Origin: Candidatus Cloacimonadales bacterium
GTDB lineage: Bacteria; Cloacimonadota; Cloacimonadia; Cloacimonadales; DAONDQ01
Length of the DNA: 64,000 nucleotides
Direction: 5' to 3'
Assembly (NCBI GenBank): GCA_963662275.1
Contig: OY759316.1
Span: 64,001-128,000, forward strand
In this document: positions 19,226-45,687 of the stretch, piece by piece
Layout of the letters: every line of letters begins with the position of its first letter
Numbering within the stretch: the first letter of the stretch is position 1
Position numbers and translations under genes: made by a program
Notes under the pieces: generated by a model
Seen by the model: the letters and a program-made list of their open reading frames with translations, nothing else
Databases searched by the model: none
What the model was told of the DNA's origin: nothing

Positions 19226-20659
19226 ATGTTTAGAAAACTAGTGTCCTACTTAGCCATTATCATGATGGTATCAACTGCAATCGCTGCAAATAATACAGTA
19301 AGTTCCACCTCTCAGCCAACATCTGAGGCTCAACTTGTCAGGGATTATTACACACCTGTCTCCGGCTTGACCGGAACTGCCCTGAAAAATGGGCTGCATA
19401 CTTTGATCAGTACCAATACATATTCCAATTATGATGGAGCCAGGGTTCTTATGTTTCAGCATCTGGATAATACTGCTGGTGTTGTCAGATGTGTTTACAC
19501 TGGTCAGGATTTTACAATAGCTGCTAGTTATTCAGGTCAGGACAGCCCAAACACAGAGCATACTTATGCCCAAAGTTGGTTTACAGTCTCTCCTTCAGTC
19601 GAAAAAGCGGATCCTCACCATTTGTTTGTCACAGAGTCTACAGTTAATTCCACTCGTGGATCATTCCCTTTCGGAAAAGTAATGGCTCCCACAAATTCAT
19701 TTCCCAGCCAAAATGGCTATGTCAGTAAATTGGGCAACAATCAGCTCAACCAGACTGTATTTGAACCTGCTGATGCGCATAAAGGCGATTTAGCCCGTGC
19801 TCTGTTATATTTTAATGTGCGTTATAATGAAACATTAACCATTGATGGAGTTGATCAACTTCCAGCATGTCTTCAATGGAATTATTTCGATCCTCCAACA
19901 GCAGCAGAAGTAACTCGCAATACACTTATTCAACCAGTGCTCTCAAATCGTAATCCCTTTGTTGATCATCCTGAATATGCAACATCGATTTGGGTTGGAA
20001 CTACGAATAACACAATGTTGAATTTTTCTCCTGTTTCTTCCAGTGCCCAGGAGAATGTTGGAACTGCTCATTTATCGATTCAGATACAGAATCCAAATAC
20101 CTATTTATCGACTGCCAAGGTTGTTCTGAAGAGTGGAAATGCAGCTCATATTGGAAATTACACACCAATCAATATCACTTTTCCATCCAACAGCACAGCA
20201 GTCCAAACGATCGATATTAATGTTACAGATGACCAAATTATCGATGGTAATGAGACTTTTATCTTTGAAATACAAAATGCACAAGGTGGATATTATGCAA
20301 TACCCGGCTTGCAAAGAACTTACACTTTAACGGTATTGGACAATGACACTATTCTGAACGATGACCCCATGATATCAACTCCTTCTAGCGGGATCAGTTC
20401 CATTTATCCCAATCCTTTCAACCCTGAAACCAGGATTCAGTATGCTGTTTCTCATCCAGGACTTGTGAATTTGGATATTTATAATGTGAAAGGACAAAAA
20501 GTGACAACTCTGATCTCTCAAAATCAAGCTGCCGGGAATTATACTCAAACCTGGAATGGTAAAGATGATATCGGTATTCCACAAAGCAGCGGTGTCTATT
20601 ATGTTCGATTGAATTCAGGTAATGATCAATCTGTTCGAAAAGTCATTTTGATGAAATAA
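19226..20659 (+). CDS. Secreted endonuclease I family nuclease (signal peptide-EndoI-Calx-beta-FlgD/T9SS-type CTD), paralogue A
   Basis: 'NTEHTYAQSW', 'DPHHLF...NSTRG', 'FEP.D.HKGDLARALLYF.VRY', 'NRNPFVDHPEY'; CTD 'YPNPFNPET...KVILMK'. Confidence 0.88.
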   Translation: MFRKLVSYLAIIMMVSTAIAANNTVSSTSQPTSEAQLVRDYYTPVSGLTGTALKNGLHTLISTNTYSNYDGARVLMFQHLDNTAGVVRCVYTGQDFTIAASYSGQDSPNTEHTYAQSWFTVSPSVEKADPHHLFVTESTVNSTRGSFPFGKVMAPTNSFPSQNGYVSKLGNNQLNQTVFEPADAHKGDLARALLYFNVRYNETLTIDGVDQLPACLQWNYFDPPTAAEVTRNTLIQPVLSNRNPFVDHPEYATSIWVGTTNNTMLNFSPVSSSAQENVGTAHLSIQIQNPNTYLSTAKVVLKSGNAAHIGNYTPINITFPSNSTAVQTIDINVTDDQIIDGNETFIFEIQNAQGGYYAIPGLQRTYTLTVLDNDTILNDDPMISTPSSGISSIYPNPFNPETRIQYAVSHPGLVNLDIYNVKGQKVTTLISQNQAAGNYTQTWNGKDDIGIPQSSGVYYVRLNSGNDQSVRKVILMK

Positions 20660-20680
20660 AGAGTCATCTCTTAGAAAAAT

Positions 20681-20705
20681 GGCTAGCAAAAGCTAGCCTT
20701 TTTTT
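20681..20705 (+). terminator. Intrinsic terminator
   Basis: ggctagc-aaaa-gctagcc followed by T7. Confidence 0.75.
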
Positions 20706-20889
20706 CTCTGAAAAAAGCGTTAAATTTTATGTATGGTACTGATTCAGTTATCTTTGAATACTTTCAAGGATATCAATTGGCAGTATCTTGTTGATTTAAT
20801 AATGAATGTAATTGATAAAGTCGATATATTGCTTAGGATTAAAAGATATATTTGATTTTCGGAAACGAAACAACAAAGAAGGAGTTATA

Positions 20890-23800
20890 ATGAACCAAAA
20901 AATGTTTCTGATGATAATGTTCTGTTTTTTTGCCATATCATTAAGCTATGCCATCAATATCAGCGGTGGTATTACATTAACAGAAGATTTTACGATTGGT
21001 ACAACAGCCACAGCAACTCTATCTCCTGATTGGAAAGTAGATAAAAACACGACTGTCAGGACTGTTGGCACTTATACATCTGCTGTCACTGCCACTGAAC
21101 GTAGCGGTGGAAACGCCATGGGTACAACAGCAGCAAATGGTATTTATAATTATGGAGCTGGTGATGCAGCTACAGCTACAGATCGTTCTGTGGGCTGGAT
21201 ATCTTCCGGCAATGCTACTAAAAGTGGTAACTTATATGTTCAACTTGTCAATAATGGCAATACAGCGATTGGAAATTTCACCATATCTTTTGATGTGGAG
21301 AAATATCGAAAAGGTACAAATGCAGGTGGCTTCTCCATCCAAATGTATTATTCTGCGGATGGTGCAACTTGGACAAGTGCTGGTAGTGATTTTTTAGTTA
21401 GCTTTCCGGGAGTAGATGCAGACAATGCCGGTTATACCACAGCTCCAGGGGCAACAACATCGATATCTCTCATGTCTTTACCACAAGCTTTGGTCGCCTC
21501 TGATACTCTTTATCTTGCTTGGAATTATTCTGTAACGTCTGGTGCTGTTACCAGTTATGCCCAAGCTTTGGGCATCGATAATGTAGTCATCACGGCGAAT
21601 AGTTCAGGTCCTTCCTTGCCATCACTTTCTACAACTGCTATTTCTGAAATTACACCGACTACTGCCTCCAGCGGTGGTAACATTGTATTTGACGGTGGCT
21701 CTGGTATTTCAGCCCGAGGTGTTTGCTGGAATACTGGTGGAGCTCCTATCATAACTGATAGCCATACTTCAGATGGAACTGGAGCCAGTTCTTTCGTAAG
21801 TACCATTACTGGTCTGACTGCCTCTACAGCATATCACGTAAGAGCTTATGCAACAAACAGCACTGGGACTGCTTATGGAAATGAACTTACATTCACCACA
21901 GGCGGAAATGGTCCACCTCCTGCCCCAGTTGCCGTAACTGCAACATCGATTACTTACAATTCCTTCATCGCCAATTGGAATAACGTTGCAGAAGCAACTT
22001 CCTACCGATTGGATGTCTCGACAACTGAATCATTCACTTCTTTTATCGCTGGATTTGAAGACGTAAGTGTGAATGCTTTAGCTCATGCTGTCAATGGTCT
22101 TACATTTTCAACTACTTACTATTATCGTGTTCGAGCAGTCAATGCTGATGGAGCAAGTCCCAATTCAAATACCATTTCTGTACTCACAGATGTTAGTCCA
22201 GAGATTCCAAATGCTCCTGTTGCCCTTGCTGCATCGGGTGTTTCATCTTCAGGGTTTATTGCAGGATGGAATGCATCCACAAATGCAACAAGTTATCACT
22301 TGGATGTTTCCTCATCTGATACATTCTCTTCATTCGTCACTGGCTATGAGGATCTCGTAGTGAATGGACTGACACAATCTGTCAGTGGTCTTTCAGCTAC
22401 ATCTACATATTATTATCGCGTTCGTGCTTCCAATATATCCGGTACAAGTACGAATTCAAACATCATAACTGTATTTACAAACGAAGCTGGAACGATCATA
22501 TTAACTGAAGGCTTTGAAGATGCTTCCACGGGCACACCTCCAGTTGGTTGGACACTTTCTGCACCAGGTTCCTATATTCTCTCTAATGGTGCAAATTCTC
22601 ATGGCGGGACTAATTATGCTGGTGTCAATGCGATGAATGGTTGGGTGATGACTCCGCTACTTGTGAATCCAACCGAATTATTCTTCTGGGGACGTACTTC
22701 CGGTACGACATCAAATTTTACAATTACATTGCAGTCTTCTCCTGATTTATCATCATGGACTGATGTTACAACTTATATTGCTAACGGCACTGATACCGGT
22801 ACGGTGAATAGTACCTATTCTCAGAAAAATGCTGGTCTGAATCTGACAGGCAGTTATTATCTGCGCTGGATGATGACAGCTCGTACGGGAGGAAGCTTCT
22901 ACTTTGATGATGTTGAAGTGACTTCCGGTTCTGTTATCCCGACAATTCCTACAGCGCCAGTTGCCTTAGCAGCTACTTCCATTGTCGCAGTTGGATTCAC
23001 CGCAAACTGGCACGCATCTATATCGGCAACAAGCTATCGTTTGGATGTTTCCACTTCCAATGCATTTGACTCTTTTGTTCTCGGTTACGAGGATTTGATT
23101 GTCGAAGATATTACTCAATCAGTATCAGGTCTGAATGCTGCTACAAACTATTATTATCGTGTCCGCGCCGTCAATCATGTCGGTACCAGCACCAATTCAA
23201 ATGTGATCACGGTTTTAACTGCTAATACTTCAGTCATTCCAGAAGCCCCAATTGCAGAAACTGCAAGCGGAATCACTTCTGCAGGCTTCATAGCGAATTG
23301 GAATGTATCCACAAATGCTACAAGCTACTTCCTGGATGTTTCCTTAACTAATGCATTTACTACATTCGTTACTGGTTACCAGAATTTGACTGTGAATGAT
23401 ACTTTAAAACTGGTGACAGGTCTTTCTTCTTTAACGAATTACTACTATCGTGTCCGTGCTGATAATATTGCCGGAACAAGTGTTAACTCCAATATTATTG
23501 AAGTCATGACGACTGATTTTGATCCCAATTTTACGTATTACAATCCTGTCGCTGGACTGACAGGTAATGCTCTGAAAACCGGGTTGACTAATCTGATCAG
23601 TACCAATACATATTCCAGCTACAATGGTGCCAAAGTCATCATGTTTCAGCAGTTGGATAACACGAATGGTGTTGTAAGATGTGTTTATACAGGTCGTGAT
23701 TTTCCAATTGCGTCTGATTATTCAGGACAGAACAGTCCAAATACCGAACATACATATGCTCAAAGCTGGTTCACTGCTTCTGCTTCTGTAGAAAAGGCTG

Positions 23801-25125
23801 ATTTGCACCATCTGTTTGTCACAGAATCTACAGTCAATTCCACCCGCGGTAACTTACCGTTTGGTAAAGCAATCACAACAACAACGACCTTCCCCAGTTT
23901 TAATGGTTATGTAAGCAAAAAAGGAACAGATTATAACGGACAGATAGTATTTGAGCCGGCTGACCAGCATAAAGGCGACCTGGCACGAGCTCTCCTCTAT
24001 TTCAATGTACGTTATGAGGAAAGCCTGTTCATTCAAAACGTCGACCAGCTTCCCGCATGTATTCAATGGAATTACCTGGATCCTCCTTCTCCGGCTGAAA
24101 TTGCTCGCAATAACCAGATATATTCAGTTTTATCGAATAAGAATCCATTTGTCGATCATCCTGAATATGTCACTTCCATCTATGTACCCACTGCAACCAA
24201 CACAATGCTGAATTTTGCTCCTGTTTCTTCCAGTGTGCAGGAGAATGTGGGAATAGTCCATCTATCCATTCAAATTCAGAATTCGAATACGTATGCCTCT
24301 ACAGCAATGGTTGTCCTTAAAAGCGGAAACGCTGCTCATTTAGGCAATTTTACTCCGGTAAACGTTACATTTCCTGCCAGCAGCACAACTGCTGTCAGCG
24401 TTGATGTTAGCGTAACGGATGACGATATTTCAGATGGCAATGAGAACTTCGTTTTTGAAATTCAGAATGCACAGGGTGGATATTATGCCATTCCCGGTCT
24501 TCAAAATGATTATACCTTAACAGTAGAAGATAATGATGGCGGAATTCCTGTTCCTGTCGCTCTTCCGGCAATCCAAGTATCCAATACTAGCTTTATAGCT
24601 CATTGGCTGCCGGTAAATGGAATCAATAGCTACTCTCTTGATGTAGCTACGGATGCTGATTTTTCTTCTTTCGTGGGAAATTTACATAATTTCGTTCTAG
24701 GCGATACAACATACACGGTTTCAAATCTTGAACAAGGTCATTCCTATTACTATAGAGTCCGTTCTGTCATGAATGATGCGCAAAGCACAAATTCAAATCT
24801 CATAATGATCATTCTCACAGGCAACCAGGATCCTACTGTTTCAGTACCTATCACTGGTATTCGTTCCATCTATCCCAATCCTTTCAATCCTGAAACCACA
24901 ATTCAATATTCATTAGCTAAATCAGGATTGATAAATATTGAGATTTATAATGTGAAAGGACAAAAAGTAATTACATTGGTATCTCAGAATCAGTCTGCTG
25001 GTAATTATTCACAAGTATGGAATGGAAAGAATGACCAGGGTAAATCACTGAGCAGCGGCATCTATTATGTGCGTATGAAATCAGCGAATGATTCGTCTGT
25101 GCGGAAAGTTGTCTTAATGAAATAA
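20890..25125 (+). CDS. Secreted multidomain endonuclease I (6 Fn3, MAM/adhesin-like, EndoI, Calx-beta, FlgD CTD), paralogue B
   Basis: Start at MNQKM after AAGGAG; repeated 'YYYRVRA.N' Fn3 motifs; intact EndoI motifs at ~23535-24180; CTD '...KVVLMK'. Confidence 0.88.
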   Translation: MNQKMFLMIMFCFFAISLSYAINISGGITLTEDFTIGTTATATLSPDWKVDKNTTVRTVGTYTSAVTATERSGGNAMGTTAANGIYNYGAGDAATATDRSVGWISSGNATKSGNLYVQLVNNGNTAIGNFTISFDVEKYRKGTNAGGFSIQMYYSADGATWTSAGSDFLVSFPGVDADNAGYTTAPGATTSISLMSLPQALVASDTLYLAWNYSVTSGAVTSYAQALGIDNVVITANSSGPSLPSLSTTAISEITPTTASSGGNIVFDGGSGISARGVCWNTGGAPIITDSHTSDGTGASSFVSTITGLTASTAYHVRAYATNSTGTAYGNELTFTTGGNGPPPAPVAVTATSITYNSFIANWNNVAEATSYRLDVSTTESFTSFIAGFEDVSVNALAHAVNGLTFSTTYYYRVRAVNADGASPNSNTISVLTDVSPEIPNAPVALAASGVSSSGFIAGWNASTNATSYHLDVSSSDTFSSFVTGYEDLVVNGLTQSVSGLSATSTYYYRVRASNISGTSTNSNIITVFTNEAGTIILTEGFEDASTGTPPVGWTLSAPGSYILSNGANSHGGTNYAGVNAMNGWVMTPLLVNPTELFFWGRTSGTTSNFTITLQSSPDLSSWTDVTTYIANGTDTGTVNSTYSQKNAGLNLTGSYYLRWMMTARTGGSFYFDDVEVTSGSVIPTIPTAPVALAATSIVAVGFTANWHASISATSYRLDVSTSNAFDSFVLGYEDLIVEDITQSVSGLNAATNYYYRVRAVNHVGTSTNSNVITVLTANTSVIPEAPIAETASGITSAGFIANWNVSTNATSYFLDVSLTNAFTTFVTGYQNLTVNDTLKLVTGLSSLTNYYYRVRADNIAGTSVNSNIIEVMTTDFDPNFTYYNPVAGLTGNALKTGLTNLISTNTYSSYNGAKVIMFQQLDNTNGVVRCVYTGRDFPIASDYSGQNSPNTEHTYAQSWFTASASVEKADLHHLFVTESTVNSTRGNLPFGKAITTTTTFPSFNGYVSKKGTDYNGQIVFEPADQHKGDLARALLYFNVRYEESLFIQNVDQLPACIQWNYLDPPSPAEIARNNQIYSVLSNKNPFVDHPEYVTSIYVPTATNTMLNFAPVSSSVQENVGIVHLSIQIQNSNTYASTAMVVLKSGNAAHLGNFTPVNVTFPASSTTAVSVDVSVTDDDISDGNENFVFEIQNAQGGYYAIPGLQNDYTLTVEDNDGGIPVPVALPAIQVSNTSFIAHWLPVNGINSYSLDVATDADFSSFVGNLHNFVLGDTTYTVSNLEQGHSYYYRVRSVMNDAQSTNSNLIMIILTGNQDPTVSVPITGIRSIYPNPFNPETTIQYSLAKSGLINIEIYNVKGQKVITLVSQNQSAGNYSQVWNGKNDQGKSLSSGIYYVRMKSANDSSVRKVVLMK

Positions 25126-25128
25126 AAA

Positions 25129-25280
25129 GTAGGGATAGACCCATGTGTCTATCCTCTTCTTGAAAAAATGTAGGGATAAACCCATGTGTTTATCCTCTTC
25201 TTAATGAATACGAAAGGGCAGATCAATTGATCTGCCCTTTTTCTAATATCCCCCCTTGGGAAGGGGGGCAGGGGGGTCAA
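25129..25280. repeat. GTAG-type REP cluster
   Basis: GTAGGGATA(G/A)ACCCATGTGT(C/T)TATCCT at 25129 and 25170 (compensatory change in stem); aaagggcagatcaattgatctgcccttt 25213-25240. Confidence 0.8.
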
Positions 25281-25646
25281 TTTCTGCTCCTTTTCGTGTT
25301 TTTCGTCTGTTTCGTGGTTTCTTCTCTTTCTTCTCTGCCAATCTTCCATCTCTGAGGTTCACACCACAGGCTATCGGATTTCATATCTCCGATATTTCAT
25401 TTTGATTTTCTGCTCTTTTTTCTTTCTGCCACTTTTAGTTTTTAGTTTCCTCCTCTTCTTTCCCCAATTCATAATTCGTAATTATTTTGAAATCCTCTCT
25501 CGATTTTGCCACATAGCTCCTTCCTATATATAGGGGAAGGTGTCAGGTTTCAGGTGTCAGCTAACAGGTTCAGAACAGAAAGAAGAGTTCTCCGAGTGAT
25601 TGGATTTATCCAATTGTATCGAGGAGACGTCATATGTGATAGCCAA

Positions 25647-25781
25647 TTATAAATCTCATGGAAGACAAAAAAAACAGAAAAGAAACAAAAACTAAAGAAA
25701 ATCTAAGGATAATCTAAAAAAGTCTAGATGATCCCTAGATGATGCCTAGATGAAACCCAGCTCAAAAAGAAAGTGCGAAGT
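25647..25781 (+). repeat. Dispersed ~140-bp element, copy 1
   Basis: Near-identical to 49853-49998; internal 11-bp ctagatgat(c/g)c tandem. Confidence 0.85.
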
Positions 25782-25957
25782 TCGAGGTTCGAAGTTCGAA
25801 ATTGCAGAGTTGTGGAGTAAGATGCCGATCTTACTAAATCTGCTCTTCTCTGATCTTTTCTGATTTATTTCTCCCTTTGGTTAAAGGGAGAAATTCGAGC
25901 AGATATTGAGTTTTGTTTGCGAAAGTTCGGGATGATATAGAAGGATTCACAAACATC

Positions 25958-26002
25958 TTGACGGTAATTCTACTTACGATACATAATTTTTCAGGTAGGA
26001 GG
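25958..26002 (+). promoter_or_regulatory. Putative sigma70 promoter and RBS for the ATPase operon
   Basis: TTGACG-18 nt-CATAAT, then AGGAGG. Confidence 0.5.
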
Positions 26003-26003
26003 A

Positions 26004-27161
26004 ATGATGATTAAAAAGTTAAATGTCTCGAATTTTGCTAAATTGAAAGATGCAGAATTCAACTTCAAGGATTTGAATTTATTCGTAGGTCCTCAGGCAT
26101 CTGGTAAGTCATTAACCTTACAATTGATTAAGCTGCTTATAGATTACCGAGATATTGTCAACAACTTGAAGCGCTATAACTATGATTGGAAAGGCAAAAT
26201 CAATCTATTTCCCGAATTGTATTTCGGAGAAGGCATGAGCGGACTTTTAGAGAATATACTTGTCACTCAAGTTCCAAAGGGTAAGGATATTAATTATAAT
26301 GTTGATTATGCCAGAGGATATGATAGACTACAGAGCCCTCAATGTTTTTATATTCCAGCTCAAAGATTCCTCGTTATTGAAGAAGACTGGCCTAAAGCAT
26401 TTGAAACCTTCGAGAACAAGTATCCTTATGTAGTTCGTGAATTTAGTGATGTGTTAAGAACCATCTTGAATAAACATCCTGAGAAAAGCATTTTTCCTTA
26501 TAGTCCCAAATTGAAGAAGAGTATTAAGAAACAAATTGAAGAAACTATCTATCAGAACTCTAATATCGAATTAGTTTCCCAAAAAGGCAGAAAAAGGGTG
26601 ATGCTGAAAGTAGGTGGAACTGATCGAGAACTACCAATGACATTGATCTCAACAGGTCAGAGAGAATTTCTTCCTTATTTGATTTCCTTATATCACCTTT
26701 TACCCGCAGGGAAAGTGGAAAGAAATGGCGAGATAAATACAGTTATCATTGAAGAGCCAGAAATGGGATTGCATCCCCAAGCAATCAGGACTTTCCTTTT
26801 TACGGTAATCGAAATGCTGTCCCGCAATTATCGAGTGTTTATCTCTACCCATTCTGTTGACCTGATGAATTATATATGGGCTTTCATTGAGATTTCCCAA
26901 TGTAAAGATAAGATAAAAAGGAATACAGCCATATTAAGAATGCTGGCTCTCGAACCAAATGAACTATCAGATGCCTATTTAGATACGATAGCAAAGAAGA
27001 AGGTATCTGTCCATTACTTCAAACCCGAAAATGGCAATATTTCAGTTAAAGACATTTCCAAATTGCCAATCAGCTCAGGTGATGATAGTGACGATCAGTC
27101 AGAGTGGGGTGGTCTATTAACTTCATCAGATTTGATGAATAGCATTATTTCATCTCTCTAA
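26004..27161 (+). CDS. Non-transporter ABC-superfamily ATPase (AAA_15/AAA_21-like)
   Basis: 'IKKLNVSNFAKL', Walker A 'GPQASGKS', 'YIPAQR', signature 'STGQRE', Walker B/D-loop 'IIEEPEMGLHP', H-loop 'ISTHS'; no TM segments. Confidence 0.88.
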   Translation: MMIKKLNVSNFAKLKDAEFNFKDLNLFVGPQASGKSLTLQLIKLLIDYRDIVNNLKRYNYDWKGKINLFPELYFGEGMSGLLENILVTQVPKGKDINYNVDYARGYDRLQSPQCFYIPAQRFLVIEEDWPKAFETFENKYPYVVREFSDVLRTILNKHPEKSIFPYSPKLKKSIKKQIEETIYQNSNIELVSQKGRKRVMLKVGGTDRELPMTLISTGQREFLPYLISLYHLLPAGKVERNGEINTVIIEEPEMGLHPQAIRTFLFTVIEMLSRNYRVFISTHSVDLMNYIWAFIEISQCKDKIKRNTAILRMLALEPNELSDAYLDTIAKKKVSVHYFKPENGNISVKDISKLPISSGDDSDDQSEWGGLLTSSDLMNSIISSL

Positions 27162-27171
27162 GGCGGGTACT

Positions 27172-27627
27172 ATGAATCAGCGGAGGAATCAGAACATTGC
27201 TTTACCTGGATTCATGGTAGCGGAATTGAATGCCTTACAAAGAGATGAGCGCGGGAAAATCATATGTGCTAATTTACCAGATCTTCAATCTGGAGATATT
27301 GACACATTTTACAAAAAAGTAAGAGAACATTCCAATGCAACACGATGGGATTATATCTTGTTCCGAAATTCGGATCAAAGAGTATGGTATGTCGAATTTC
27401 ACGAAGGAACTTCAGATGGATATTCTGATGTTGTTAAGAAGCTTCAATGGTTAAAGATTATGATAAACGATCCAAGTACTGAACTATGTGTTTTCCGTAA
27501 TCTATGTTCGGTTGAATACTTTTGGCTTAGAACCGGCAAGAATATGTTACATCCTGCTTCAAAACAAGCTAAGCAATTAGCAAAAAATAAAGAACTGAAG
27601 TATCAGGCGACATTGACTATAGATTAA
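27172..27627 (+). CDS. Hypothetical protein, putative PD-(D/E)xK-fold nuclease partner of the ATPase
   Basis: 'RWDYILF....VWYVEFH.G.....VVKKLQWLK'; starts 10 bp after the ATPase stop. Confidence 0.6.
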   Translation: MNQRRNQNIALPGFMVAELNALQRDERGKIICANLPDLQSGDIDTFYKKVREHSNATRWDYILFRNSDQRVWYVEFHEGTSDGYSDVVKKLQWLKIMINDPSTELCVFRNLCSVEYFWLRTGKNMLHPASKQAKQLAKNKELKYQATLTID

Positions 27628-27721
27628 TCAATCAAACTCTCTCTCAGATTGAAGTACAAGGCTCGAAGTTCGAAATTCAGAGCAGGTATTGAGTTTTGTT
27701 TGAGAAAGAATGGGATGATTG

Positions 27722-27755
27722 GGAACGCCTGACGGGGTCAGGCGTTCCGTTTTTT
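27722..27755 (+). terminator. Strong intrinsic terminator after the ATPase operon
   Basis: GGAACGCCTGAC-ggg-GTCAGGCGTTCC 12-bp stem followed by gTTTTTT. Confidence 0.8.
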
Positions 27756-27766
27756 GATTGTTTTAA

Positions 27767-28162
27767 CTTTCCAAGAATTTCGAAGTAGCCGAGAAAGCAA
27801 GAATAGCAGAATGTTATGATGCTGCTATCAGTCGTTATTATTATGCTCTTTTTCAATCGATTAGCAATTATCTTATAAATCATAATCAATACAACCCAAA
27901 CAGTTATATAGGGGAAAGCAGTCATATTGAATTAGGAAAGCAATTAAAATTATTTATGGATGGTGAGCATAAGAAAGATTCATATCTTTTAGATATTGCT
28001 ATATTTTATAGATTGAAAGAACGTAGAAGAGAAGCTGATTATGACGGAACTAAATTTACTTCTAATAAAGCAGAATTTGAAAAATTTGCTTTGGATTTCA
28101 ATATTATGAATAGCTTATTATCACGATTTGGATTATCTTCACTTCAAAGGATACCTATATGA
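27767..28162 (+). pseudogene. HEPN-domain gene (UPF0332-like), 5'-truncated or lacking a canonical start
   Basis: Frame of the 27956 ORF extends 63 codons upstream: 'NFEVAEKA...YDAAISRYYYALFQ...SH...RLKERRREADY'; in-frame TAA at 27764-27766 and no ATG/GTG/TTG before 27956. Confidence 0.7.
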
Positions 28163-29799: not shown

Positions 29800-29836
29800 C
29801 TTGCTTTCAAAGGCGATATTACTCATACGTGTTTAT

Positions 29837-29869: not shown

Positions 29870-29883
29870 GTATTTTAATTGTC

Positions 29884-36969: not shown

Positions 36970-37162
36970 ACAAATCTCCTTGTTCGATTTAATACTAAGC
37001 CTGATAAGCGTATGTTTTGTTGTATCTATTGACTCTTTGCCTTTCATTTCATTTCTTTTGCTGATTAATAAACAAAAACTTTGACCAAGTAAACATATAC
37101 AAAATATTCAGGTTAAAGTGGGTAAACGATTAAAATTATAGAAAGTCTGTCAATGGATATCC

Positions 37163-37279: not shown

Positions 37280-39145
37280 TTATTTCATTAAAACGACTTT
37301 CTGTGTAGAACTATACTTCCCGGCAATCATGTGATAGAAATAGACACCACTGCCAGCTTCCTTTCCAGTTTCATCTTTACCATTCCAAATAAGATTATGG
37401 CTCCCTTCATTCCAATTTTTGGAAGTGAGTGTTTGTATTTTACGCCCTTTGATATCATAAATAGCGATATTCACAAAACACGGAGTTTTCAAAGTAAATG
37501 AGATATTGGTTTCTGGATTGAATGGATTCGGGTAAGCTGGATTTAGCTTAGTAAACATAGGTATTACAGGTGGAATATTTGGATTATCCTGTTCATGAAC
37601 TTGTATCATTACTGGTCCAGTGAAAGAGCTTATACCACCGAAATCGATATTCTCCAGCCAGTAATAGTAAGTATGAGGCGCTTCAACGCTGGGATCAGAG
37701 AAAGTATATGTGTGTAGTGTTGATGTATTTGTTCCAGGGATAATACTAGAATTTACGTACATACCATCTGATATATTCGATCCATCAGTACGAAGAATAT
37801 TGAATCCCAGGTTGTTCGTCTCAGATTCAGTCGTCCATTGCAAGTTTACCAGTAATTGGGAAGTGGAAGATACTGCCGTGAAGGACGAAAGCTCAACGGG
37901 CAGTTCACTTGAGACATCATTTAATGTTCCCAAGGTATAGAAGCCATTATTAGTCACCGAAGTAAGAGGATTAACAGTGAAGGAAATCACTCTGCCAACG
38001 ATAGTGGGAGAACCTGTCACAATTGAATAATTGTCTTTTGTGTCATTTCTGAATAACAGACGGTAATCACTGCCACCAGGCGTGAATGAAGGCAGTCCCA
38101 AGTTATCAAGATTAAAGCTGAAAATGGTATTCAAAGATCCAGAAAATTCCATAAACCACTCTCGATGCAATCTAAGAAAGTGGGGATAACTTACTATGCT
38201 CGGATTGCTTGCAGCCGTTGTTCCTGTTCCTATATCATGTCCTGCACGAATTCTGGCAAAAGCACTGATGTAAGTACCTTTAATCGTTAAGCCATCGGTT
38301 GCTTGTGTTACTGAACCAGCACCTGGCAAAGAGATTTCAATCATATCAGTGTAATGCTCTGGGCTGGTTGTATTAGCTAACGTCAACGCATATTTAGTTG
38401 AAAGATAATTCTCAACCGTTTTGCGTTCGGTATCGGATAAATAGCGATTATAAATAATGAATTCCGTTACCCAGCCGTTGAAATGAGAGTGAGTGGTTGT
38501 ACCACCATAATACTTCCCAATCGCTGATCCAGTCCATTCTGCCAAATGAGCAAGCCTGCCGGAAGTAGCAGTATTCATATTTAATCCACGTAATCCACCG
38601 TTGATATATGTATCATTCCCGAGAGTATTGGAATGTCTGAGTGATACGATAATAGGTGCTTCTCCACTGACATAGTTATTCATTCTCATGTCATAGTCAT
38701 TTGTGTATTGAGCATGGGTGAACGTATTATTTGTACGCCAGCCAATATGCATATTCTTTTGCTGAATCGGGTTTGAACCGCCTAAAAAAAAGTTAAAGAT
38801 AGCATTTGAAGAACGTTTCACAACTGCAATGATAGTGTAATTGGTATTTACTACAAGATTGCCATCAAAGTTTAGATAGCTTGTTGAACCATTGAAAACA
38901 ACAGCAGGCTTACCACTGATGAGGTTTGTTTTATATATAGGTCTACACGACAAAGTATCTTGGAGAGCATGTTTGGCATTTCCACTTAGATCAGTCCAAC
39001 TGCTAACTGCTGTCCCATCTGCTAAACCTAGTGAATTAGCATCCAGCCACATTGTTAAACCGCTACTGACATTACCAGGTCCGACAGCAAATAATGCTGA
39101 GAGGTTGAAAGCAATCAGGATAAGTATTAGATTTTTTTTCTTCAA
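37280..39145 (-). CDS. Secreted LamG/ConA-like domain protein with FlgD/T9SS-type CTD
   Basis: 'LTMWLDA...VSSWTDLSGN', 'EFIIYNR.LS..ER..VENYL..KY', 'LPVELSSF', 'YPNPFNPET...KVVLMK'. Confidence 0.75.
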   Translation of the reverse strand: MKKKNLILILIAFNLSALFAVGPGNVSSGLTMWLDANSLGLADGTAVSSWTDLSGNAKHALQDTLSCRPIYKTNLISGKPAVVFNGSTSYLNFDGNLVVNTNYTIIAVVKRSSNAIFNFFLGGSNPIQQKNMHIGWRTNNTFTHAQYTNDYDMRMNNYVSGEAPIIVSLRHSNTLGNDTYINGGLRGLNMNTATSGRLAHLAEWTGSAIGKYYGGTTTHSHFNGWVTEFIIYNRYLSDTERKTVENYLSTKYALTLANTTSPEHYTDMIEISLPGAGSVTQATDGLTIKGTYISAFARIRAGHDIGTGTTAASNPSIVSYPHFLRLHREWFMEFSGSLNTIFSFNLDNLGLPSFTPGGSDYRLLFRNDTKDNYSIVTGSPTIVGRVISFTVNPLTSVTNNGFYTLGTLNDVSSELPVELSSFTAVSSTSQLLVNLQWTTESETNNLGFNILRTDGSNISDGMYVNSSIIPGTNTSTLHTYTFSDPSVEAPHTYYYWLENIDFGGISSFTGPVMIQVHEQDNPNIPPVIPMFTKLNPAYPNPFNPETNISFTLKTPCFVNIAIYDIKGRKIQTLTSKNWNEGSHNLIWNGKDETGKEAGSGVYFYHMIAGKYSSTQKVVLMK

Positions 39146-39414
39146 TATATCTGACTCCAGTATTAAACATTAATAATTTCATAGAGGAAAGTTAATTAAT
39201 TCACAGCTTTCGCTCATAAATGTTTTCCATATATCTTATTTAGATTCACGAACTTTTTTGGTTACATATATGTCAAGGACAAAGTACTATATTTACCTGT
39301 AAAACAAAAATACGGAACTGCATGACCCAATGTACAATACAAATAAGGTACTAATACCTATTATATTCAAAATTGTTATTATACACAAATCCCATTCTGC
39401 GAATTATCGACTCA

Positions 39415-42400
39415 TTATTTTGTCTCAGAAATTGCAATTACATGATAGAATTTCATCATTTCAGATAATGTAGTTGTCCAAGTAAAAGACCCTTCAGTTT
39501 CATTAAAAATGCCATCGGAACTGACGTCACTATATGTCCCATTCGGCATATCCGCCGCTTCCACTCGATATGTTACAGGAGTTTGGGGAATTGCATGCCA
39601 TGATAGCACAATAGAATCTGAATCTATCGTAATTTGCATTTCCGGTGTTTGTATATTTTGGTTTGAACCAATATGAGAGCCAAGATAGGTTGCTGTATCA
39701 ATAGGATAGACAACCCATTCAGAATTAGCTGTATTTGTACCTGCAGAAACAGACCAGTTAGTATCTCCAAAATTTATTGTAGAATGCCGTATGAGTGTAT
39801 GATCTTTTGTTGCAGCTAAGGTTCCAGCAACATTCCAGTCTGTTGATGGATCAGAACCCGGTACACCAATAACATCGATTAGTGCTCCGTTCTTCTCTAA
39901 TCCAACAGCATCATTACCATTATAGATAAGTGCAGAACTAGCTAGATTTGTTTTAGCAAGAATATCAGCATTTGCTGATGAATTGGAAATAACATAAGTT
40001 GAATTTGAAGCAAGAGTTCCACTTAAAGCTATTGATGAAGTATTCCAGGCACTTCCATTCATCGCTTGTTTGATTGAATATATCGATAGATCAATCGTCG
40101 ATGTTGTTGGATTATAAAGCTCTATTGCCTTGTTATTGCTGCTTCCTTCCAAATACTCAGATATGAACAGATCACTTGCACTCGAGAGTACAGGAGTCTG
40201 TACTATTATCACATTGGAATTGAGACTCGCACCAGCTACATTCACTGCACGAACACGATAATAGTAGGTTGTATTAGGTGTCAATCCCGTCACCGCTTGT
40301 GTAAGACTAGATACTGTCAAATCCTGGTATCCGGACAAATAGCTGTCAAATAGATTAGACAGCGAAACATCAAAACGATAGGAAAGAGCTGTTGATACAG
40401 AATTCCACTTAGCGGTAAAATTATAGCTGGATAGATCAGCATATACAATCGCAACCGGTGCCACCGGTAATGACAATGTTGTAGAAGTGATAACATTTGA
40501 ACTGGTTCCGCTTGTTTCATTGAAGAATGCATTGACTCGATAATAATAAGTCACACCAGGAGTTAATCCATTCAATACGAGACCTGTACTATCAACTTGC
40601 AAGGCTTCATAACCTGTTATATAGGTTGAAAAGTCATTACTTGCTGATAAATCGAATTCATAGACTGTTATTCCTGAAGCTGCTTGCCAGTTTGCAGTAA
40701 AGCCGGTTGTTGAGATATTTGTAGCTGTTAGTGCGGTCACTGTTGGAATATCGTTGTCAATAATGGTCAGGTTGTAAGAATTATTAGTACCAGCCATGGC
40801 ACTTGTGCCACCTGTGATACTGCTGAGAGTAAATACAAGCGTTTCATTTCCTTCAATGACAGCATCATCAGTCACATTCGCTGTGATTGTTCTACTAGCT
40901 GAACTACCAGCGGGAAATGTCACGGTTTGTGTTGTATAATTATTAACATCTGAGGCAAGACCATCTGTCAAAACAATTTGGGCACTTGTAGCAGCGGATG
41001 CACTTGGATTTTCGATAGTAACGGTTAATGTTACAGCACCCGTGTTTTCATTGACAGTAGAACTTGCAGGATTGAATTGAATAATTGTATTCGTGACTGT
41101 ACCTCCCCATATGGAGGATACATATTCCGGGTGATCTACAAATGGATTGCGATTATGCATAAAAGTATAAATACTTGCATTTCGATTTGTTTCTTTAGTA
41201 TCCGGCGGATCAAAGCTATTCCAGGCTATCATTGTAGGAAGCATATCTACACCACTTATACTTAGACTCATACTGTAACGAACAGAAAAATACAGGAGTG
41301 CCCTTGCAAGATCACCCTTATGCTGATCGGCTGGTTCAAAAACTGTCTGTCCACCTGCATTTCTACCCAATTTACTCACATATCCATTGTAGGAAGCAAA
41401 AGTATTCGTCACGGTTGTTACTACATCGAAAGGATAATTTCCTCTTGTGGAATTGACAGTGGCATCAGTGGGGAATAGATGATGAATATCGGCTTTCTTG
41501 ATACTTGCATCCGTGGTTCCAAACCAGCTTTGGGCAAAAGTATGTTCCGTGTTGGGATTGGTTGCACCATCATACGAGGAATTAATCGTAAAGTCCTGCC
41601 CTGTATAAACACAACGGACAGTACCACTAACATTATCGGCGGTCTGATACAGGTACAGTTTAGATCCGCTGTAATCATTATTTGTATTGCTATCAATCAG
41701 GTTGTGAAGTCCATCCTTTAGCGCCGTACCTGTTAATCCGGCAACTGGGTCATAATAACCACTATACGGATCCGAAGCAGAGGTTGTTACAGTAATTGTG
41801 CCTGAATTACTGCTTGTTCCACTTGTGTTCACGGCTCGGACTCGATAGTAATAATTTGTGGAAACACTCAGTCCGGAAACTGATTGGTTAGTGGAAGTCA
41901 CAGTCAGATCGTTGTAACCTGCTACATAACTAGAGAATGAGATATTGGGTGAAACATCGAGTCTGTAGGAATTCGCTCCTGAAACAGCACTCCAGTTAGC
42001 TACACAGCTTGTGCCTGTGATAGAGCTTGCAGCTAGTGCTGTGGGTGGGGAAGGCGGAGCACCTCCACTGGTCGTGAAATCGATTTCTGCACCATAAGCT
42101 GTATCAACACTGTTGGTTGCATAAGCCCTAACATGGTAAGTAGTTCCTAACGTTAGTCCGGTGATTTCACTTGTGAAAGAACCGGAACCTGATCCGTCAC
42201 TTGTATGACTGCCTGAAAGAATTGGTGTACCGGTTGTATTCCAGCAAACACCTCTTGCAGATACAGCAGCTCCTCCATCAGAAGTAATACTCCCTCCTGA
42301 GGAAGCCGAGATATTGGTAATAGCTGTAATGGCAACTGTCGAAAGAGTTGGGGGTGTAATAGCACCATCTGTCTGGGTAAGGAGGAAATTATCTAAATAA

Positions 42401-42897
42401 AATCGATTATTAGCAGCTACTTTTGCTGTTATCTTAATTTTTGAAGAAGCTGTTCCACCAGTAATATTCACTGTCATGGTCGTCAAGGTTGTCGGGACAG
42501 CAATATCGCTTCCCACCTGCGTAAATGTTGTACCCGTTGGTGCAAAAAGTACTTGGATATATTTACCGGTATCAGAAGCCCAACACATGGTATCAAATTG
42601 AAGTGTTGCAACTCCTGAATTGGCAGAGAGATTTACGGTCTTAGTTACTACATATCCTAAAGCGCTTGAAGAGCCTATCTTTGCTTCACCGACAGTCTCA
42701 ACATAGATCTTCGAACCTGTCCAACCTGTTGTTTGGAATTTGGCATCCATTGTTGTTTGAGATGTTGAAATATCTGTTCCTGCATTTGCAGGAGTAAACC
42801 CACTAAAATTTTCACTTAATACAGTTGTTATACCTACTAATTGAATGGATAATAGCAATAGGAATAACAAGCTTCCACATGTCTTCATTAGTTTCAT
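39415..42897 (-). CDS. Secreted endonuclease I (4 Fn3, EndoI, Calx-beta, lamin-tail domain, non-FlgD C-terminal domain), paralogue D
   Basis: Intact EndoI motifs at ~41110-41765; LTD 'LFISEYLEGSSNNKA'; ends 'KFYHVIAISETK'. Confidence 0.88.
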   Translation of the reverse strand: MKLMKTCGSLLFLLLLSIQLVGITTVLSENFSGFTPANAGTDISTSQTTMDAKFQTTGWTGSKIYVETVGEAKIGSSSALGYVVTKTVNLSANSGVATLQFDTMCWASDTGKYIQVLFAPTGTTFTQVGSDIAVPTTLTTMTVNITGGTASSKIKITAKVAANNRFYLDNFLLTQTDGAITPPTLSTVAITAITNISASSGGSITSDGGAAVSARGVCWNTTGTPILSGSHTSDGSGSGSFTSEITGLTLGTTYHVRAYATNSVDTAYGAEIDFTTSGGAPPSPPTALAASSITGTSCVANWSAVSGANSYRLDVSPNISFSSYVAGYNDLTVTSTNQSVSGLSVSTNYYYRVRAVNTSGTSSNSGTITVTTSASDPYSGYYDPVAGLTGTALKDGLHNLIDSNTNNDYSGSKLYLYQTADNVSGTVRCVYTGQDFTINSSYDGATNPNTEHTFAQSWFGTTDASIKKADIHHLFPTDATVNSTRGNYPFDVVTTVTNTFASYNGYVSKLGRNAGGQTVFEPADQHKGDLARALLYFSVRYSMSLSISGVDMLPTMIAWNSFDPPDTKETNRNASIYTFMHNRNPFVDHPEYVSSIWGGTVTNTIIQFNPASSTVNENTGAVTLTVTIENPSASAATSAQIVLTDGLASDVNNYTTQTVTFPAGSSASRTITANVTDDAVIEGNETLVFTLSSITGGTSAMAGTNNSYNLTIIDNDIPTVTALTATNISTTGFTANWQAASGITVYEFDLSASNDFSTYITGYEALQVDSTGLVLNGLTPGVTYYYRVNAFFNETSGTSSNVITSTTLSLPVAPVAIVYADLSSYNFTAKWNSVSTALSYRFDVSLSNLFDSYLSGYQDLTVSSLTQAVTGLTPNTTYYYRVRAVNVAGASLNSNVIIVQTPVLSSASDLFISEYLEGSSNNKAIELYNPTTSTIDLSIYSIKQAMNGSAWNTSSIALSGTLASNSTYVISNSSANADILAKTNLASSALIYNGNDAVGLEKNGALIDVIGVPGSDPSTDWNVAGTLAATKDHTLIRHSTINFGDTNWSVSAGTNTANSEWVVYPIDTATYLGSHIGSNQNIQTPEMQITIDSDSIVLSWHAIPQTPVTYRVEAADMPNGTYSDVSSDGIFNETEGSFTWTTTLSEMMKFYHVIAISETK

Positions 42898-42930
42898 TTT
42901 CTGCTCCTATATAACCGGATATTCCGGTTT

Positions 42931-45687
42931 TCAATTCATGAACATTGTCTTAGTTATGATTGATTTATCTTTCGTCTTCATTTGAATTAAATAAATACCT
43001 GAACCAACTGTCTTCCCTGTGACATCCTTACCATCCCAAGATGTATCTAATTTGCCTTTGGTAACGAGACCTGAATGCAAGTTACGCACTTTCTGCCCTC
43101 TAATATTGTAGACATCTATTTGCACATTCCCTGTTTTGGAAGTGTTGACAGTTATGTTGAGAGTTCGATAGAAGGGATTTGGATATGTTTTAACTGAAAT
43201 TACAGGAGCAACCCCAGGATTGTCCTGATTCATTGTAGATGTATCTAAATCAAAATAATCAAACATGATCGTATGCAGCATATCGTTAATACTCGGATTC
43301 TCTCCAGTGAGACCATTCAATTCAAAGGCAGATGCTATCGTTTTATAAGTATCTGTTTGGTGATAAATGCCGATGATATCAGAGTTCTCTGCAATAGCTG
43401 TTTTGAAAATTGGAAGATCATCTTCCTGGGACATAAATGGCTTATTCATCAAATTGTAGCCTGTGTAATTCCAAACATGACCGGAGGCAAGATCAAATCC
43501 ATAAATACTCTGAATATTTGCTAAATGTGAGAAGGGAGCAATTGCCATAAATTTATCGATAAACGCATTCTCCATATCTCCTGAGAACTGATCACCTTCC
43601 AGGTACACTTTACCACCGGCATCGAGATAATCTGACAATAATTGGCTTTCTTCCGGGTGATTGGAGAAGTAATATGTGTTTTCTGCAAAACCCGAAAGAA
43701 TAAAGATCGCTTTAAAGTTATTTAAGTATGAATAGTCAGGTATGAGTTTATCCGTATAGATGACATTCATTTCACTCACAGATCGAATCGCTTGGATAAG
43801 ATTTGAAGAGTGGGCATTCAAAGCCGGTTCCCAAACCAATACTTCTCCATCATTTGTAATAAAATCACTTTGATAGCCAATTGCAGGATCACCGAATAAA
43901 AGGTATGTATAGATATTCTGCAACTCAGGCCAGATAATGCCGTCAGAATCAACAGGATCACCAAATAGAAAATAATTGCTATACAGAAAATTCATATTAC
44001 CCAGCGATTGCCCAATAGTCTGGTGAAAATTGACATAATTCTCAAGAAAATAGTAATTATAGGAGTTTAGACCACCCCAACCGGGATTCTTCCAACCAAT
44101 CTTTCCCCAGCCTGTTCGAGTGGCTGCAATAGCAGCAACGGCTTTCTTTTGGAGTATTGTTTCACCTAATGAGATACCTTCCATATCGAGCATACCATTA
44201 TTACAAGAGGCGCAAAAATAGACGGAACCATCCTGGTTTGCCAGATTATCGAAAGTAGTTAAATTAACCAATCCATGCCATTCTGTTTCGCTATTTTGCG
44301 GAATACTATCAAGATTCGTATCCTCAACCCATAGTTTACGAGAAGATGACACACTACTTCCATGTGCTGCCCAGTCGACAATACCATAACTGTTTGTATT
44401 TAATAGATTTGTTAACTCGTCCTGATTTAATGGGTAATCCGAAGGCATTGAAGTAACTAATCCTTCCTGCTCATACATTGTCGTAACATCATTACTGTTA
44501 AAAATATGAGTCTTCGCAAATTCACCCCAAATATCGTTATTTGTCATTAGCCATGGGTTGCCGTTCTCTTGAGCATAATTCAGGATCGCTCCGGGAATAA
44601 GTACATGGTTTTTCCAATCTGCGGTTGTGTTTTCGAAGGCTATGATACGTGCTTCGACCTGGTTCACTCTTGTTGAATCATTAAAGGGAATTCTACCCAC
44701 ATACAGCTCAGGAGTGAAGTCAATACCGTAATCCTCATCTCCATTTCCCATCGAATATTCCCCTAAGATTCCATCATTATCGGTATCAAAATCAGAACTG
44801 AGATCGGAATAATAAAAATCAGAAGGAACCAAAACCGTGCTATTAGGTTCAGGTCCCAAATATTGAATTGGTATTGTATCCACGTCTCCCACAAGTAGAA
44901 GGTATGTGAAAGGAGAGGTTATATAAAGACTAACAAGGTAATTTCGTACTTTTTCTGCGTCATTAAAACCTTGTTGAGTTGCCCGGATGGAATCAACCGA
45001 TACCATCTGAACCTGCATTCCCTGTTGCTGGTGAAATTGTATTAAAGGCAGCAATGCAGGGAATAGGGTTTGCTTAGTAATTATTAAATAATCAAAATTG
45101 CGTAGTCCTGTATCGTGATAATTCAGACGCAAGGCTTCAGGATTAAGAAACTGACCTTCATTCCCATTAATGGATGGAGGAATCCTATTACTGGCAGTTT
45201 TCCCATTGAACGTATAATTTACATCAATTGAGAGATCAGTTATATTTTCCAAGGTACAAGCATTCTCATTGAAGGTATAAGGTAACACATCAAACCTGGC
45301 AAATGCTACATCTCCCCAATGACCAACCCCGACATATTTTATATGTTCTTTCTCGTGATTGTCATAATTCGATGATAGGTATTTTTTATCACCATAGAAA
45401 GGAGGGTTCTTTTCAGGAAATTTCGGTGAATTCATAGTCTCTTTTGAATAATTTGCCTTCCAACTGATATTAACTGCATTAGGAGGTAGAATTATATTCA
45501 CTCTCTTATGAGGTAACCGATAGCTGCCTGGAGCAGTTAAGGTACCGTATCCTTCCATGTTTATGGACACACTGTTAACGTTATTCTCTATTTGGATATC
45601 ATTTATCTTCATCAGGACAGTCGTTGTTTCTGACCAGGCTATAGAAGTAAAGACAGTTATAATGAGATACACTACAAACTTCTTCAA
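42931..45687 (-). CDS. C25 family (gingipain-like) cysteine peptidase with propeptide and FlgD/T9SS-type CTD
   Basis: 'YLLLVGDV..IP', 'SDFYYSDL', 'VGRIP', catalytic 'AAHGS' and 'ASCNNG', 'LLFGDPA', 'YPNPF'. Confidence 0.88.
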   Translation of the reverse strand: MKKFVVYLIITVFTSIAWSETTTVLMKINDIQIENNVNSVSINMEGYGTLTAPGSYRLPHKRVNIILPPNAVNISWKANYSKETMNSPKFPEKNPPFYGDKKYLSSNYDNHEKEHIKYVGVGHWGDVAFARFDVLPYTFNENACTLENITDLSIDVNYTFNGKTASNRIPPSINGNEGQFLNPEALRLNYHDTGLRNFDYLIITKQTLFPALLPLIQFHQQQGMQVQMVSVDSIRATQQGFNDAEKVRNYLVSLYITSPFTYLLLVGDVDTIPIQYLGPEPNSTVLVPSDFYYSDLSSDFDTDNDGILGEYSMGNGDEDYGIDFTPELYVGRIPFNDSTRVNQVEARIIAFENTTADWKNHVLIPGAILNYAQENGNPWLMTNNDIWGEFAKTHIFNSNDVTTMYEQEGLVTSMPSDYPLNQDELTNLLNTNSYGIVDWAAHGSSVSSSRKLWVEDTNLDSIPQNSETEWHGLVNLTTFDNLANQDGSVYFCASCNNGMLDMEGISLGETILQKKAVAAIAATRTGWGKIGWKNPGWGGLNSYNYYFLENYVNFHQTIGQSLGNMNFLYSNYFLFGDPVDSDGIIWPELQNIYTYLLFGDPAIGYQSDFITNDGEVLVWEPALNAHSSNLIQAIRSVSEMNVIYTDKLIPDYSYLNNFKAIFILSGFAENTYYFSNHPEESQLLSDYLDAGGKVYLEGDQFSGDMENAFIDKFMAIAPFSHLANIQSIYGFDLASGHVWNYTGYNLMNKPFMSQEDDLPIFKTAIAENSDIIGIYHQTDTYKTIASAFELNGLTGENPSINDMLHTIMFDYFDLDTSTMNQDNPGVAPVISVKTYPNPFYRTLNITVNTSKTGNVQIDVYNIRGQKVRNLHSGLVTKGKLDTSWDGKDVTGKTVGSGIYLIQMKTKDKSIITKTMFMN

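Follow-up and report, generated by a model that had tools for sequence, protein, structure and literature searches.

The Endonuclease I family of Gammaproteobacteria, represented by Vvn (structures 1OUO and 1OUP), Escherichia coli EndA and Vibrio cholerae Dns, consists of secreted, non-specific nucleases, which are single-domain proteins of about 210-235 aa found in the periplasm or the medium. We analyzed a 64,000-nt stretch of the genome of an uncultured Candidatus Cloacimonadales bacterium (contig OY759316.1, positions 64,001 to 128,000, forward strand), called the window below, in which a block at 19226-45687 holds six large open reading frames (ORFs), A and B on the plus strand and C, D, E and F on the minus strand. 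Positions are window positions unless marked as genome positions. Four of the six genes, A, B, C and E, all intact and all within 19226-42897, share the PF04231 domain with the gammaproteobacterial enzymes; unlike in those enzymes, the nuclease domain of about 200 aa is part of proteins of 477 to 2361 aa, along with Calx-beta, Fn3, lamin-tail (LTD), head and sorting domains.

Two described systems in other bacteria come closest to this block. For Riemerella anatipestifer, a type IX secretion system (T9SS)-secreted EndoI and AS87_RS02955 nuclease have been reported (PMC12398890, PMC10202324). The Riemerella EndoI is a T9SS cargo, as A and B are likely to be, and the head domain of E is similar to the AS87_RS02955 family, covering positions 1-181 of the 251-position model NF052644 (E-value 7.4e-17). 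E was rejected as an endonuclease of that family, as it reached 61.5 bits against a cut-off of 260 and matched in the N-terminal domain only, so that the homology is one of domains. E fuses the AS87_RS02955-like head and Endonuclease I in one protein, unlike Riemerella. In Riemerella, an animal pathogen, the enzymes are small and associated with virulence, and the present ones belong to an uncultured environmental anaerobe. The second system is the 'DNA-degradation loci' of Candidatus Izemoplasmatales, in which genes for phosphohydrolases, transporters and a lamin-tail-domain protein accompany several extracellular nucleases, up to five per genome; five nucleases per genome were termed an unprecedented gene dosage (Wasmund et al. 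2021, PMC8289736). By that description, co-located nuclease genes, a large multidomain protein bearing both nuclease and lamin-tail domains, and an interpretation as foraging on extracellular DNA in anoxic habitats are common to both, while phylum, cell envelope and secretion route differ. ExeM of Shewanella oneidensis reportedly also carries a lamin-tail domain on an extracellular nuclease; C and E share this domain with ExeM and NucH, but the nuclease here is Endonuclease I.

Cloacimonadota have been described as fermenters of sugars, amino acids and proteins (PMC11129491, PMC8542988); the word 'nuclease' is absent from the main text of a paper on Antarctic-lake genomes (PMC8542988), and 33 nucleases were counted in one Cloacimonadota genome from Black Sea cultures and described no further in the passages covered (PMC11129491). 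No account of multidomain Endonuclease I of Cloacimonadota was found in the literature searched, of which the supplementary tables could list such genes. An earlier note on this DNA, made from the sequence alone, had known of no description of such a locus; this does not stand as worded, given the published Izemoplasmatales loci and T9SS-secreted EndoI (PMC8289736, PMC12398890). The new elements are the domain architectures, the number of copies, a fast-evolving stalk and an unexplained terminal module; the general concept has already been published for other bacteria.

The assignment of the four genes to the family is based on near-full matches to the Pfam Endonuclease_1 model, with E-values of 9.9e-34, 3.3e-37, 2.6e-40 and 7e-41 and bit scores of 117.5, 128.9, 139.1 and 140.9 for A, B, C and E, respectively, against a cut-off of 25; the model positions matched are 1-235 in B, C and E and 10-235 in A. 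The motifs which the earlier note listed as intact fall in invariant columns of a four-way alignment, namely NTEHT.AQSWF, AD.HHLF, VNSTRG, KGDLARALLYF and NPFVDHPEY. The C-terminal half of the domain aligns to solved structures (Vvn 1OUO/1OUP and Vibrio relatives) with low scores of 33-38 bits, and in these alignments the Asn of VNSTRG, invariant in all four proteins, pairs with the Asn of the Vvn segment EVNGDRSN, which we take to be the metal-binding Asn127 of Vvn; the invariant E-H dipeptide presumably corresponds to Glu79-His80 and would hold the catalytic, general-base His. All four proteins belong in intact form, and with predicted targeting for secretion, to the non-specific Endonuclease I family, and nuclease activity is predicted for them.

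Each nuclease domain is followed by a Calx-beta domain, as had been claimed, which scored above the Pfam cut-off of 27 in C and E and slightly under it in the other two (A 26.3, B 24.9 bits), whose Calx-beta domains are 41-45% identical to that of C. Identity over the stretch of Endonuclease I plus Calx-beta reaches 75% between A and B and 56-59% when A is compared with C and E; between C and E it is 81%, taken over the Endonuclease I domain. The lengths given in the earlier note (477, 1411, 2361 and 1160 aa) agree with the ORFs, those of B and C being counted from internal ATGs, and its statement that the four nucleases are of very different length was borne out. The Fn3 counts of 0, 6, 10 and 4 for A, B, C and E also hold, after four partial 'Fn3' matches were reassigned to an internal head-like domain and with one extra terminal Fn3-like module in each of C and E left outside the counts; the picture of nucleases on Fn3 stalks needs correcting, as the array of B lies mostly N-terminal of a nuclease domain which itself adjoins the sorting domain at the C-terminus. 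The bulk of the Fn3 array of C and E lies between nuclease and C-terminus, and the distance from nuclease to C-terminus differs strongly among the four proteins. The T9SS C-terminal domains (CTDs), the LTDs, the head domains, the opposite strands and the 4.7-kb spacer between B and C with its insert are features that the earlier note did not hold.

The three tandem units in C are 95.6% (1 vs 2) and 84.9% (2 vs 3) identical at the DNA level; they were found by a repeat search, Tandem Repeats Finder being blind to them as their period exceeds 500 nt. The orthologue of C in the genome of a sister species has two internal head-like copies against three here (2115 vs 2387 aa). Since two of the units are still 95.6% identical and the sister gene is one unit shorter, the length of C shifts over short evolutionary time.

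The host genome, a single contig of 4.38 Mb with 99.97% completeness and 0.5% contamination, has six Endonuclease_1 places, namely A, B, C, E, a further gene G (1022-aa frame) and a divergent one, H (839-aa frame). In a census of 158 Cloacimonadota genomes, Endonuclease I was found in 150 and six was the maximum, reached in this genome, while five copies occurred in one genome, four copies in four genomes and 0-3 in the remainder, so the unusually high copy number suspected from the window held up; clustering was rare, a second Endonuclease I being found nearby in 2 of 78 related loci, one of them from the sister genome. Four of the six copies lie within 23.7 kb of the 4.38 Mb, which points to local duplication and not to chance.

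Relatives found with a profile of the Endonuclease I-Calx-beta stretch were nearly all labelled Candidatus Cloacimonadota. The 78 related loci contained 75 stop-terminated Endonuclease I ORFs, of which 49 were short ones with a CTD and 23 carried Calx-beta; of the latter, 13 have the terminal Fn3-like module at their C-terminus and 10 have a CTD there. Two giant nuclease ORFs of 2402 and 2862 aa likewise stop with the Fn3-like module, and a single ORF falls in neither class. The usual Cloacimonadota pattern is one short and one long form. A quick LG+G4 tree of 86 Endonuclease I domains, rooted at the midpoint and with H on a very long branch, splits a 'short' clade (50 rows) from a 'long' clade of Calx-bearing sequences (27 rows), and places A, B, C, E and G in a subclade of 10 rows (SH-aLRT 90) which holds only sequences of this genome, of the sister and one other Cloacimonadaceae sequence. 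Because of this membership and the pairwise identities, one ancestral long gene with expansion at genus level is indicated, and we regard the four cluster copies, as judged by their sequences, as a genus-level expansion of the 'long' Endonuclease I of the phylum. Two contigs with typical Cloacimonadota Endonuclease I are filed under a Desulfuromonas and a 'Candidatus ainarchaeum' metagenome-assembled genome (L024 and L060); their tree positions lie inside Cloacimonadota clades and they are probably mis-binned.

In the sister genome, the order M48 peptidase-A-B is kept and is followed by about 20 kb of other DNA and then by a housekeeping block (here at 50204-62564), past which U32, the acyltransferases, F and E follow in inverted orientation; on another sister contig the end of E is followed directly by the C orthologue, with D absent. 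A-B and F-E-C are thus about 40 kb apart in the sister species and differently oriented, or, seen from there, the segment of C, E, F, the ornithine-lipid-like genes and U32 has been inverted and sits across the housekeeping block, with one rearrangement breakpoint falling in the repeat-rich spacer between B and C. This synteny indicates that the block arose by an inversion which united the A-B and F-E-C sub-clusters, whose gene order is conserved within the genus only.

With respect to secretion, the N-termini of all six proteins are Sec-like by inspection, in agreement with the signal peptides noted before. The type A CTD (TIGR04183/PF18962) was matched with 47.3, 43.1, 37.8 and 37.8 bits by A, B, D and F (cut-off 23), and G and H carry type A CTDs as well. 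A PorU gene was found at genome 549282-552497 (model NF033707, 582.4 bits, cut-off 420), and the call of the T9SS machinery is based on this component, the only one sought. Since type A CTDs, PorU and 255 CTD ORFs occur together in this genome, predicted T9SS export of A and B, and also of D, F, G and H, is well supported.

C and E both end in another module, formed by their last 82-87 residues and stopping few residues past an F-strand motif. Its structure model is a confident six-stranded sandwich (pLDDT 90), it aligns to columns 7-74 of 84 of Fn3 with an hhalign probability of 60% versus 5% for the CTD, and no CTD structure was found among its 50 best Foldseek matches, which were generic weak Ig/Fn3 ones. 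The genome has 38 large ORFs that end in this module right after (F/Y)Y(K/R)V.A, with an overlap of 0 with the 255 type A CTD ORFs, giving 293 secreted-cargo ORFs that take up 17.9% of the genome length. A search with the module profile against 1.84 billion proteins gave 59,456 matches at E<=0.001 and was swamped by proteins with many internal copies, the 150 best having 7-46 each. The module may act as a sorting or anchoring signal.

The head domains are related to one another to different degrees. The heads of C and E are profile-related (hhalign probability 82%), and that of B shows weak homology to the other heads (10-31%) and in a protein-atlas look-up matched only unnamed clusters, with a best score of 0.90. 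Stand-alone relatives of the E head are about 250 aa long and 34-42% identical, with 3 of 4 carrying a CTD, and its structure model is a beta-jellyroll with the carbohydrate-binding modules (CBMs) CBM22, CBM4 and CBM29 as nearest folds (pLDDT 69, Foldseek E-value 7e-6, TM about 0.5). We read the heads as putative polymer-binding modules. The LTDs of C and E match the LTD part of the ExeM-type model NF033680 with 4.9e-47 (160.5 bits) and 2.1e-27 (95.6 bits), respectively, over profile positions 21-175 and 16-164 of 884 and against a cut-off of 1300. C and E as ExeM/NucH nucleases were rejected, as nothing matched past the N-terminal LTD part of the ExeM models and the catalytic part is absent. 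The LTD was likewise rejected as a marker specific to nucleases, as it is also present on BNR/sortilin-like, beta-helix and DUF5689 proteins of the genome.

Taking the computed features together, that is family membership, motifs, architectures, sorting domains, copy numbers, phylogeny and synteny, we consider it reasonably probable that the four genes represent a genus-level expansion of 'long' surface Endonuclease I proteins which scavenge extracellular nucleic acid, where activity, location, substrate and role are what we infer. The ancestor would have consisted of signal peptide, head, Fn3, Endonuclease I, Calx-beta, an Fn3/LTD spacer and a C-terminal sorting module; it would have been duplicated locally into the pairs A/B and C/E, the copies then gaining and losing spacer and head domains, a process of which the 1032-nt tandem amplification in C may be a still-active part, and an inversion would have set the two pairs side by side. 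All four proteins would pass the inner membrane by Sec, A and B would pass the outer membrane by T9SS with probable C-terminal tethering, and C and E might take a route involving the terminal Fn3-like module. In the extracellular space, non-specific cutting of DNA and RNA is expected of the His-Me-finger domains, the heads may hold the enzyme on polymer or debris, the spacer length may set its distance from the cell surface, and the cleavage products would feed the scavenging of phosphorus, nitrogen and carbon from dead biomass. Two 5'-nucleotidase-family genes are present in the genome, far from the block. A gene for a secreted phosphoesterase, 10.7 kb beyond F, is conserved in the sister genome and adjoins a hybrid histidine kinase gene (53802-56297); the protein, which has an ExeM/NucH-like N-terminal stretch at residues 46-170 (NF033681, 2e-11), may process the products of the nucleases. 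Cloacimonadota are abundant uncultured anaerobes, and the nearly phylum-wide presence of secreted, often giant Endonuclease I, with six copies here, suggests that the phylum makes regular use of nucleic acid from outside the cell. The architectures of A, B, C and E would also be natural fusions of non-specific nucleases to binding and spacer modules.

Several observations weigh against this scavenging role or against parts of it. The alignments to solved structures begin after the E-H motif, so the catalytic His is not aligned by sequence and its assignment to the invariant E-H dipeptide comes, provisionally, from the full-length Pfam match and what is known of the family. C and E, which gave no match to TIGR04183 or to type B or type C models at E<=0.01, would have to reach the surface although they carry no recognised outer-membrane export signal. 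The predicted CBM-like fold of the head suits polysaccharide binding as well as nucleic-acid binding, and LTDs, being present on non-nuclease surface proteins, are no mark of nucleic-acid function. No nucleoside or phosphate transporter is located within the block, and NupC-type (PF07662) and Bmp-type (PF02608) nucleoside uptake proteins gave no match in the nearly complete genome. A look for RNA runs that hold 37280-45687 gave none. Finally, no short-read contig among those of four public runs from two studies, examined over 19000-31700, bridges the junctions of B, the insert and C, as these contigs break at repeats.

The unbridged junctions also bear on whether the four-gene block is an assembly artefact joining two separate regions, for which the separate location of the two halves in the sister genome would speak as well. 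Dispersed short repeats flank the insert at about 25120-25800 and 29680-29780, and occur in tens to about 90 copies genome-wide; the contig depth in the public runs rises 12-15 fold there, and one contig joins position 25129 to 29702 of the opposite strand, its shorter arm being 31 nt long. Against this, the genome is one contig of high completeness and low contamination, in runs of two studies the short-read contigs fill all 30 bins of 19000-31700 at depths (about 49 and about 16) that are even on either flank of the repeats, and the outer side of each half keeps conserved synteny, so that we regard an artefact as very improbable. A different question is whether the block as a whole, as the earlier note proposed, is one co-regulated surface system, similar to a polysaccharide utilization locus (PUL), that degrades nucleoprotein with enzymes of graded length. 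F, E, D and C do lie on one strand with short spacers (F-E about 33-34 nt, E-D 269 nt, D-C 232 nt) which hold no terminator-like site, making their co-transcription possible, the adjacency of F and E is kept in the sister species, and the spread in nuclease-to-C-terminus distance among the four proteins is strong. A link between nucleases and C25 proteases is also hinted at elsewhere, in that H has two adjacent C25 genes, each coding for about 1800 aa, at a distance of 1290 bp (genome 2154195-2169151), compared with 11 out of 277 other ORFs for secreted cargo that have a C25 ORF within 3 kb (a post hoc comparison on few loci), and in that one Candidatus Cloacimonas locus combines a short Endonuclease I with a relative of F (42% identity) at a distance of 4 kb. 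On the other side, a C25 relative is near Endonuclease I in just 3 of the 78 loci and F is one of 17 paralogues, D has neither a sister orthologue nor a conserved link to nucleases, A has a terminator-like hairpin of its own, a candidate defence pair interrupts the block, and the A-B and F-E-C parts are split in the sister species. Profile searches of 19226-45687 found no transporter, nucleotidase or regulator, and a PUL-like or Izemoplasmatales-type locus is not supported, as co-located nucleotidase or phosphohydrolase and transporter genes are missing and gene order is not conserved beyond the genus. Matches to sigma-70-type promoters were not above those in shuffled sequence (55 vs a mean of 55.6; 27 vs 33.8). 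The unitary system is thus unlikely in our judgement.

The same genes might instead serve surface and biofilm biology or defence, and not nutrition, by trimming an extracellular-DNA matrix during attachment or detachment or by destroying foreign DNA. The Endonuclease I enzymes of Vibrio (Dns) reportedly shape biofilms, surface proteins under diversifying pressure often vary fast in length, adhesins typically carry modules of the Fn3, CBM-like and LTD kinds, and a large part of this genome is given to secreted cargo. Competition and escape from DNA traps are also among the roles proposed for secreted nucleases (PMC12398890). These roles are compatible with nutrition, however, and nothing in the present data separates the two, while a near-universal family, usually with one short and one long form per genome, suits housekeeping scavenging better than strain-specific defence; we hold a non-nutritional role to be improbable. 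A more specific picture, in which the proteins form a surface-nuclease 'brush' of varied reach with repeated CBM-like capture domains, fast change of the tandem stalk and a second, so far undescribed C-terminal sorting class of the phylum defined by the terminal module (shared with 36 other large proteins), through which many of the nucleases would be released or anchored, is speculative and rather doubtful in its full form. Scavenging of extracellular nucleic acid by an expanded set of surface Endonuclease I proteins remains the interpretation we prefer, and the features on which it is built are listed with their neighbors in Table 1.

Table 1. Positions and domain composition of the genes and other features in the window (domain ranges in residues; those of B are numbered on the 1437-aa ORF)
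Feature	Position (nt)	Strand	Description
Gene A	19226-20659	+	477 aa; signal peptide, Endonuclease I 49-250 (nt 19370-19975), Calx-beta 262-374, T9SS type A CTD 394-477
Terminator-like hairpin	20681-20698		Bidirectional, with T-runs; 22 nt past the stop of A
Gene B	20812-25125	+	1437-aa ORF, 1411 aa from ATG at 20890; signal peptide, head 48-273, Fn3 x3, internal head-like domain ~553-697, Fn3 x2, Endonuclease I 917-1118 (nt 23560-24165), Calx-beta 1130-1242, Fn3, T9SS type A CTD 1354-1437
Insert	26004-27627	+	AAA_15/AAA_21 ATPase (385 aa) and 151-aa protein; outside the nuclease set
Gene C	29884-37047	-	2387-aa ORF, 2361 aa from ATG at 36969; signal peptide, head 49-190, Fn3 x2, Endonuclease I 397-599 (nt 35251-35859), Calx-beta 611-724, Fn3, three [head-like domain-Fn3-Fn3] units, LTD 1754-1862, post-LTD module, Fn3 x2, LTD 2124-2234, post-LTD module, terminal Fn3-like module
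Terminal Fn3-like module of C	29887-30147	-	Protein stops 6 residues past F-strand-like motif FFRVIA
Tandem array in C	31777-34629	-	Three units of 1032 nt (344 aa)
Gene D	37280-39145	-	621 aa; signal peptide, unique N-terminal part, pre-CTD module, T9SS type A CTD 538-621
Gene E	39415-42897	-	1160 aa; signal peptide, CBM-like head 23-187 (nt 42337-42831), Fn3 x2, Endonuclease I 389-591 (nt 41125-41733), Calx-beta 603-716, Fn3 x2, LTD 905-1011, post-LTD module, terminal Fn3-like module (nt 39418-39663)
Gene F	42931-45687	-	918 aa; signal peptide, Peptidase_C25 200-603 (1.4e-46), T9SS type A CTD 835-918
Secreted phosphoesterase	56433-59132	-	899 aa; calcineurin-like phosphoesterase domain 459-667, T9SS CTD

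Among the two companions of the nucleases named in the earlier note, the C25 protease was recovered as F, and the LamG-like protein, D, was matched to Laminin_G_3 (PF13385) only weakly and below the cut-off (E=0.064, 13.8 bits against 27.6, profile positions 1-149 of 151). The language-model features of D resemble those of DUF8202/Por_Secre_tail clusters (score 0.95), and 16% of the best cluster carries Laminin_G_3. For its N-terminal part of about 270 residues no relative was found in this genome or the sister genome, the part stands beside Endonuclease I in 0 of the 78 related loci, and no orthologue of D was found in the sister genome; its pre-CTD module (about 395-537) recurs in 15 of the 78 loci and at 42 other places in the genome. 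As it is just this module that recurs, D was rejected as a conserved partner of the nucleases and is a secreted neighbor unrelated to them.

F, one of 17 C25 places in the genome, lies directly upstream of E. It was rejected as the T9SS sortase PorU, since it gave no NF033707 match at E<=0.01 and the sole match over the cut-off lies elsewhere in the genome. One of the three C25 relatives found near Endonuclease I in the related loci is a weak match, and F may be loosely associated with the nucleases, so an integrated nuclease-protease-lectin locus is weakly supported with regard to F and not supported with regard to D. Next to F, at 45867-47491, GNAT and acyltransferase genes match OlsB-like and OlsA-like models of ornithine-lipid synthesis at sub-cut-off scores (128.8 and 119.7 bits), and this gene pair is conserved beside F in the sister genome.

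The insert in the spacer between B and C corresponds to a candidate defence pair of PADLOC, PDC-M56A (2.4e-114) and PDC-M56B (1.6e-20), and is an insertion that splits the block. No inverted repeat of at least 25 nt linking the two insert ends was found, and the insert genes are followed by a strong terminator-like hairpin at 27722-27748. Towards the start of the window, a type III restriction-modification-like pair at 1119-7920 consists of a methylase that matches MTase_III (PADLOC, 1.2e-160) and a ResIII helicase-like protein of 993 aa, with a helix-turn-helix gene between the two and a response-regulator-PglZ fusion nearby at 10223-11779.

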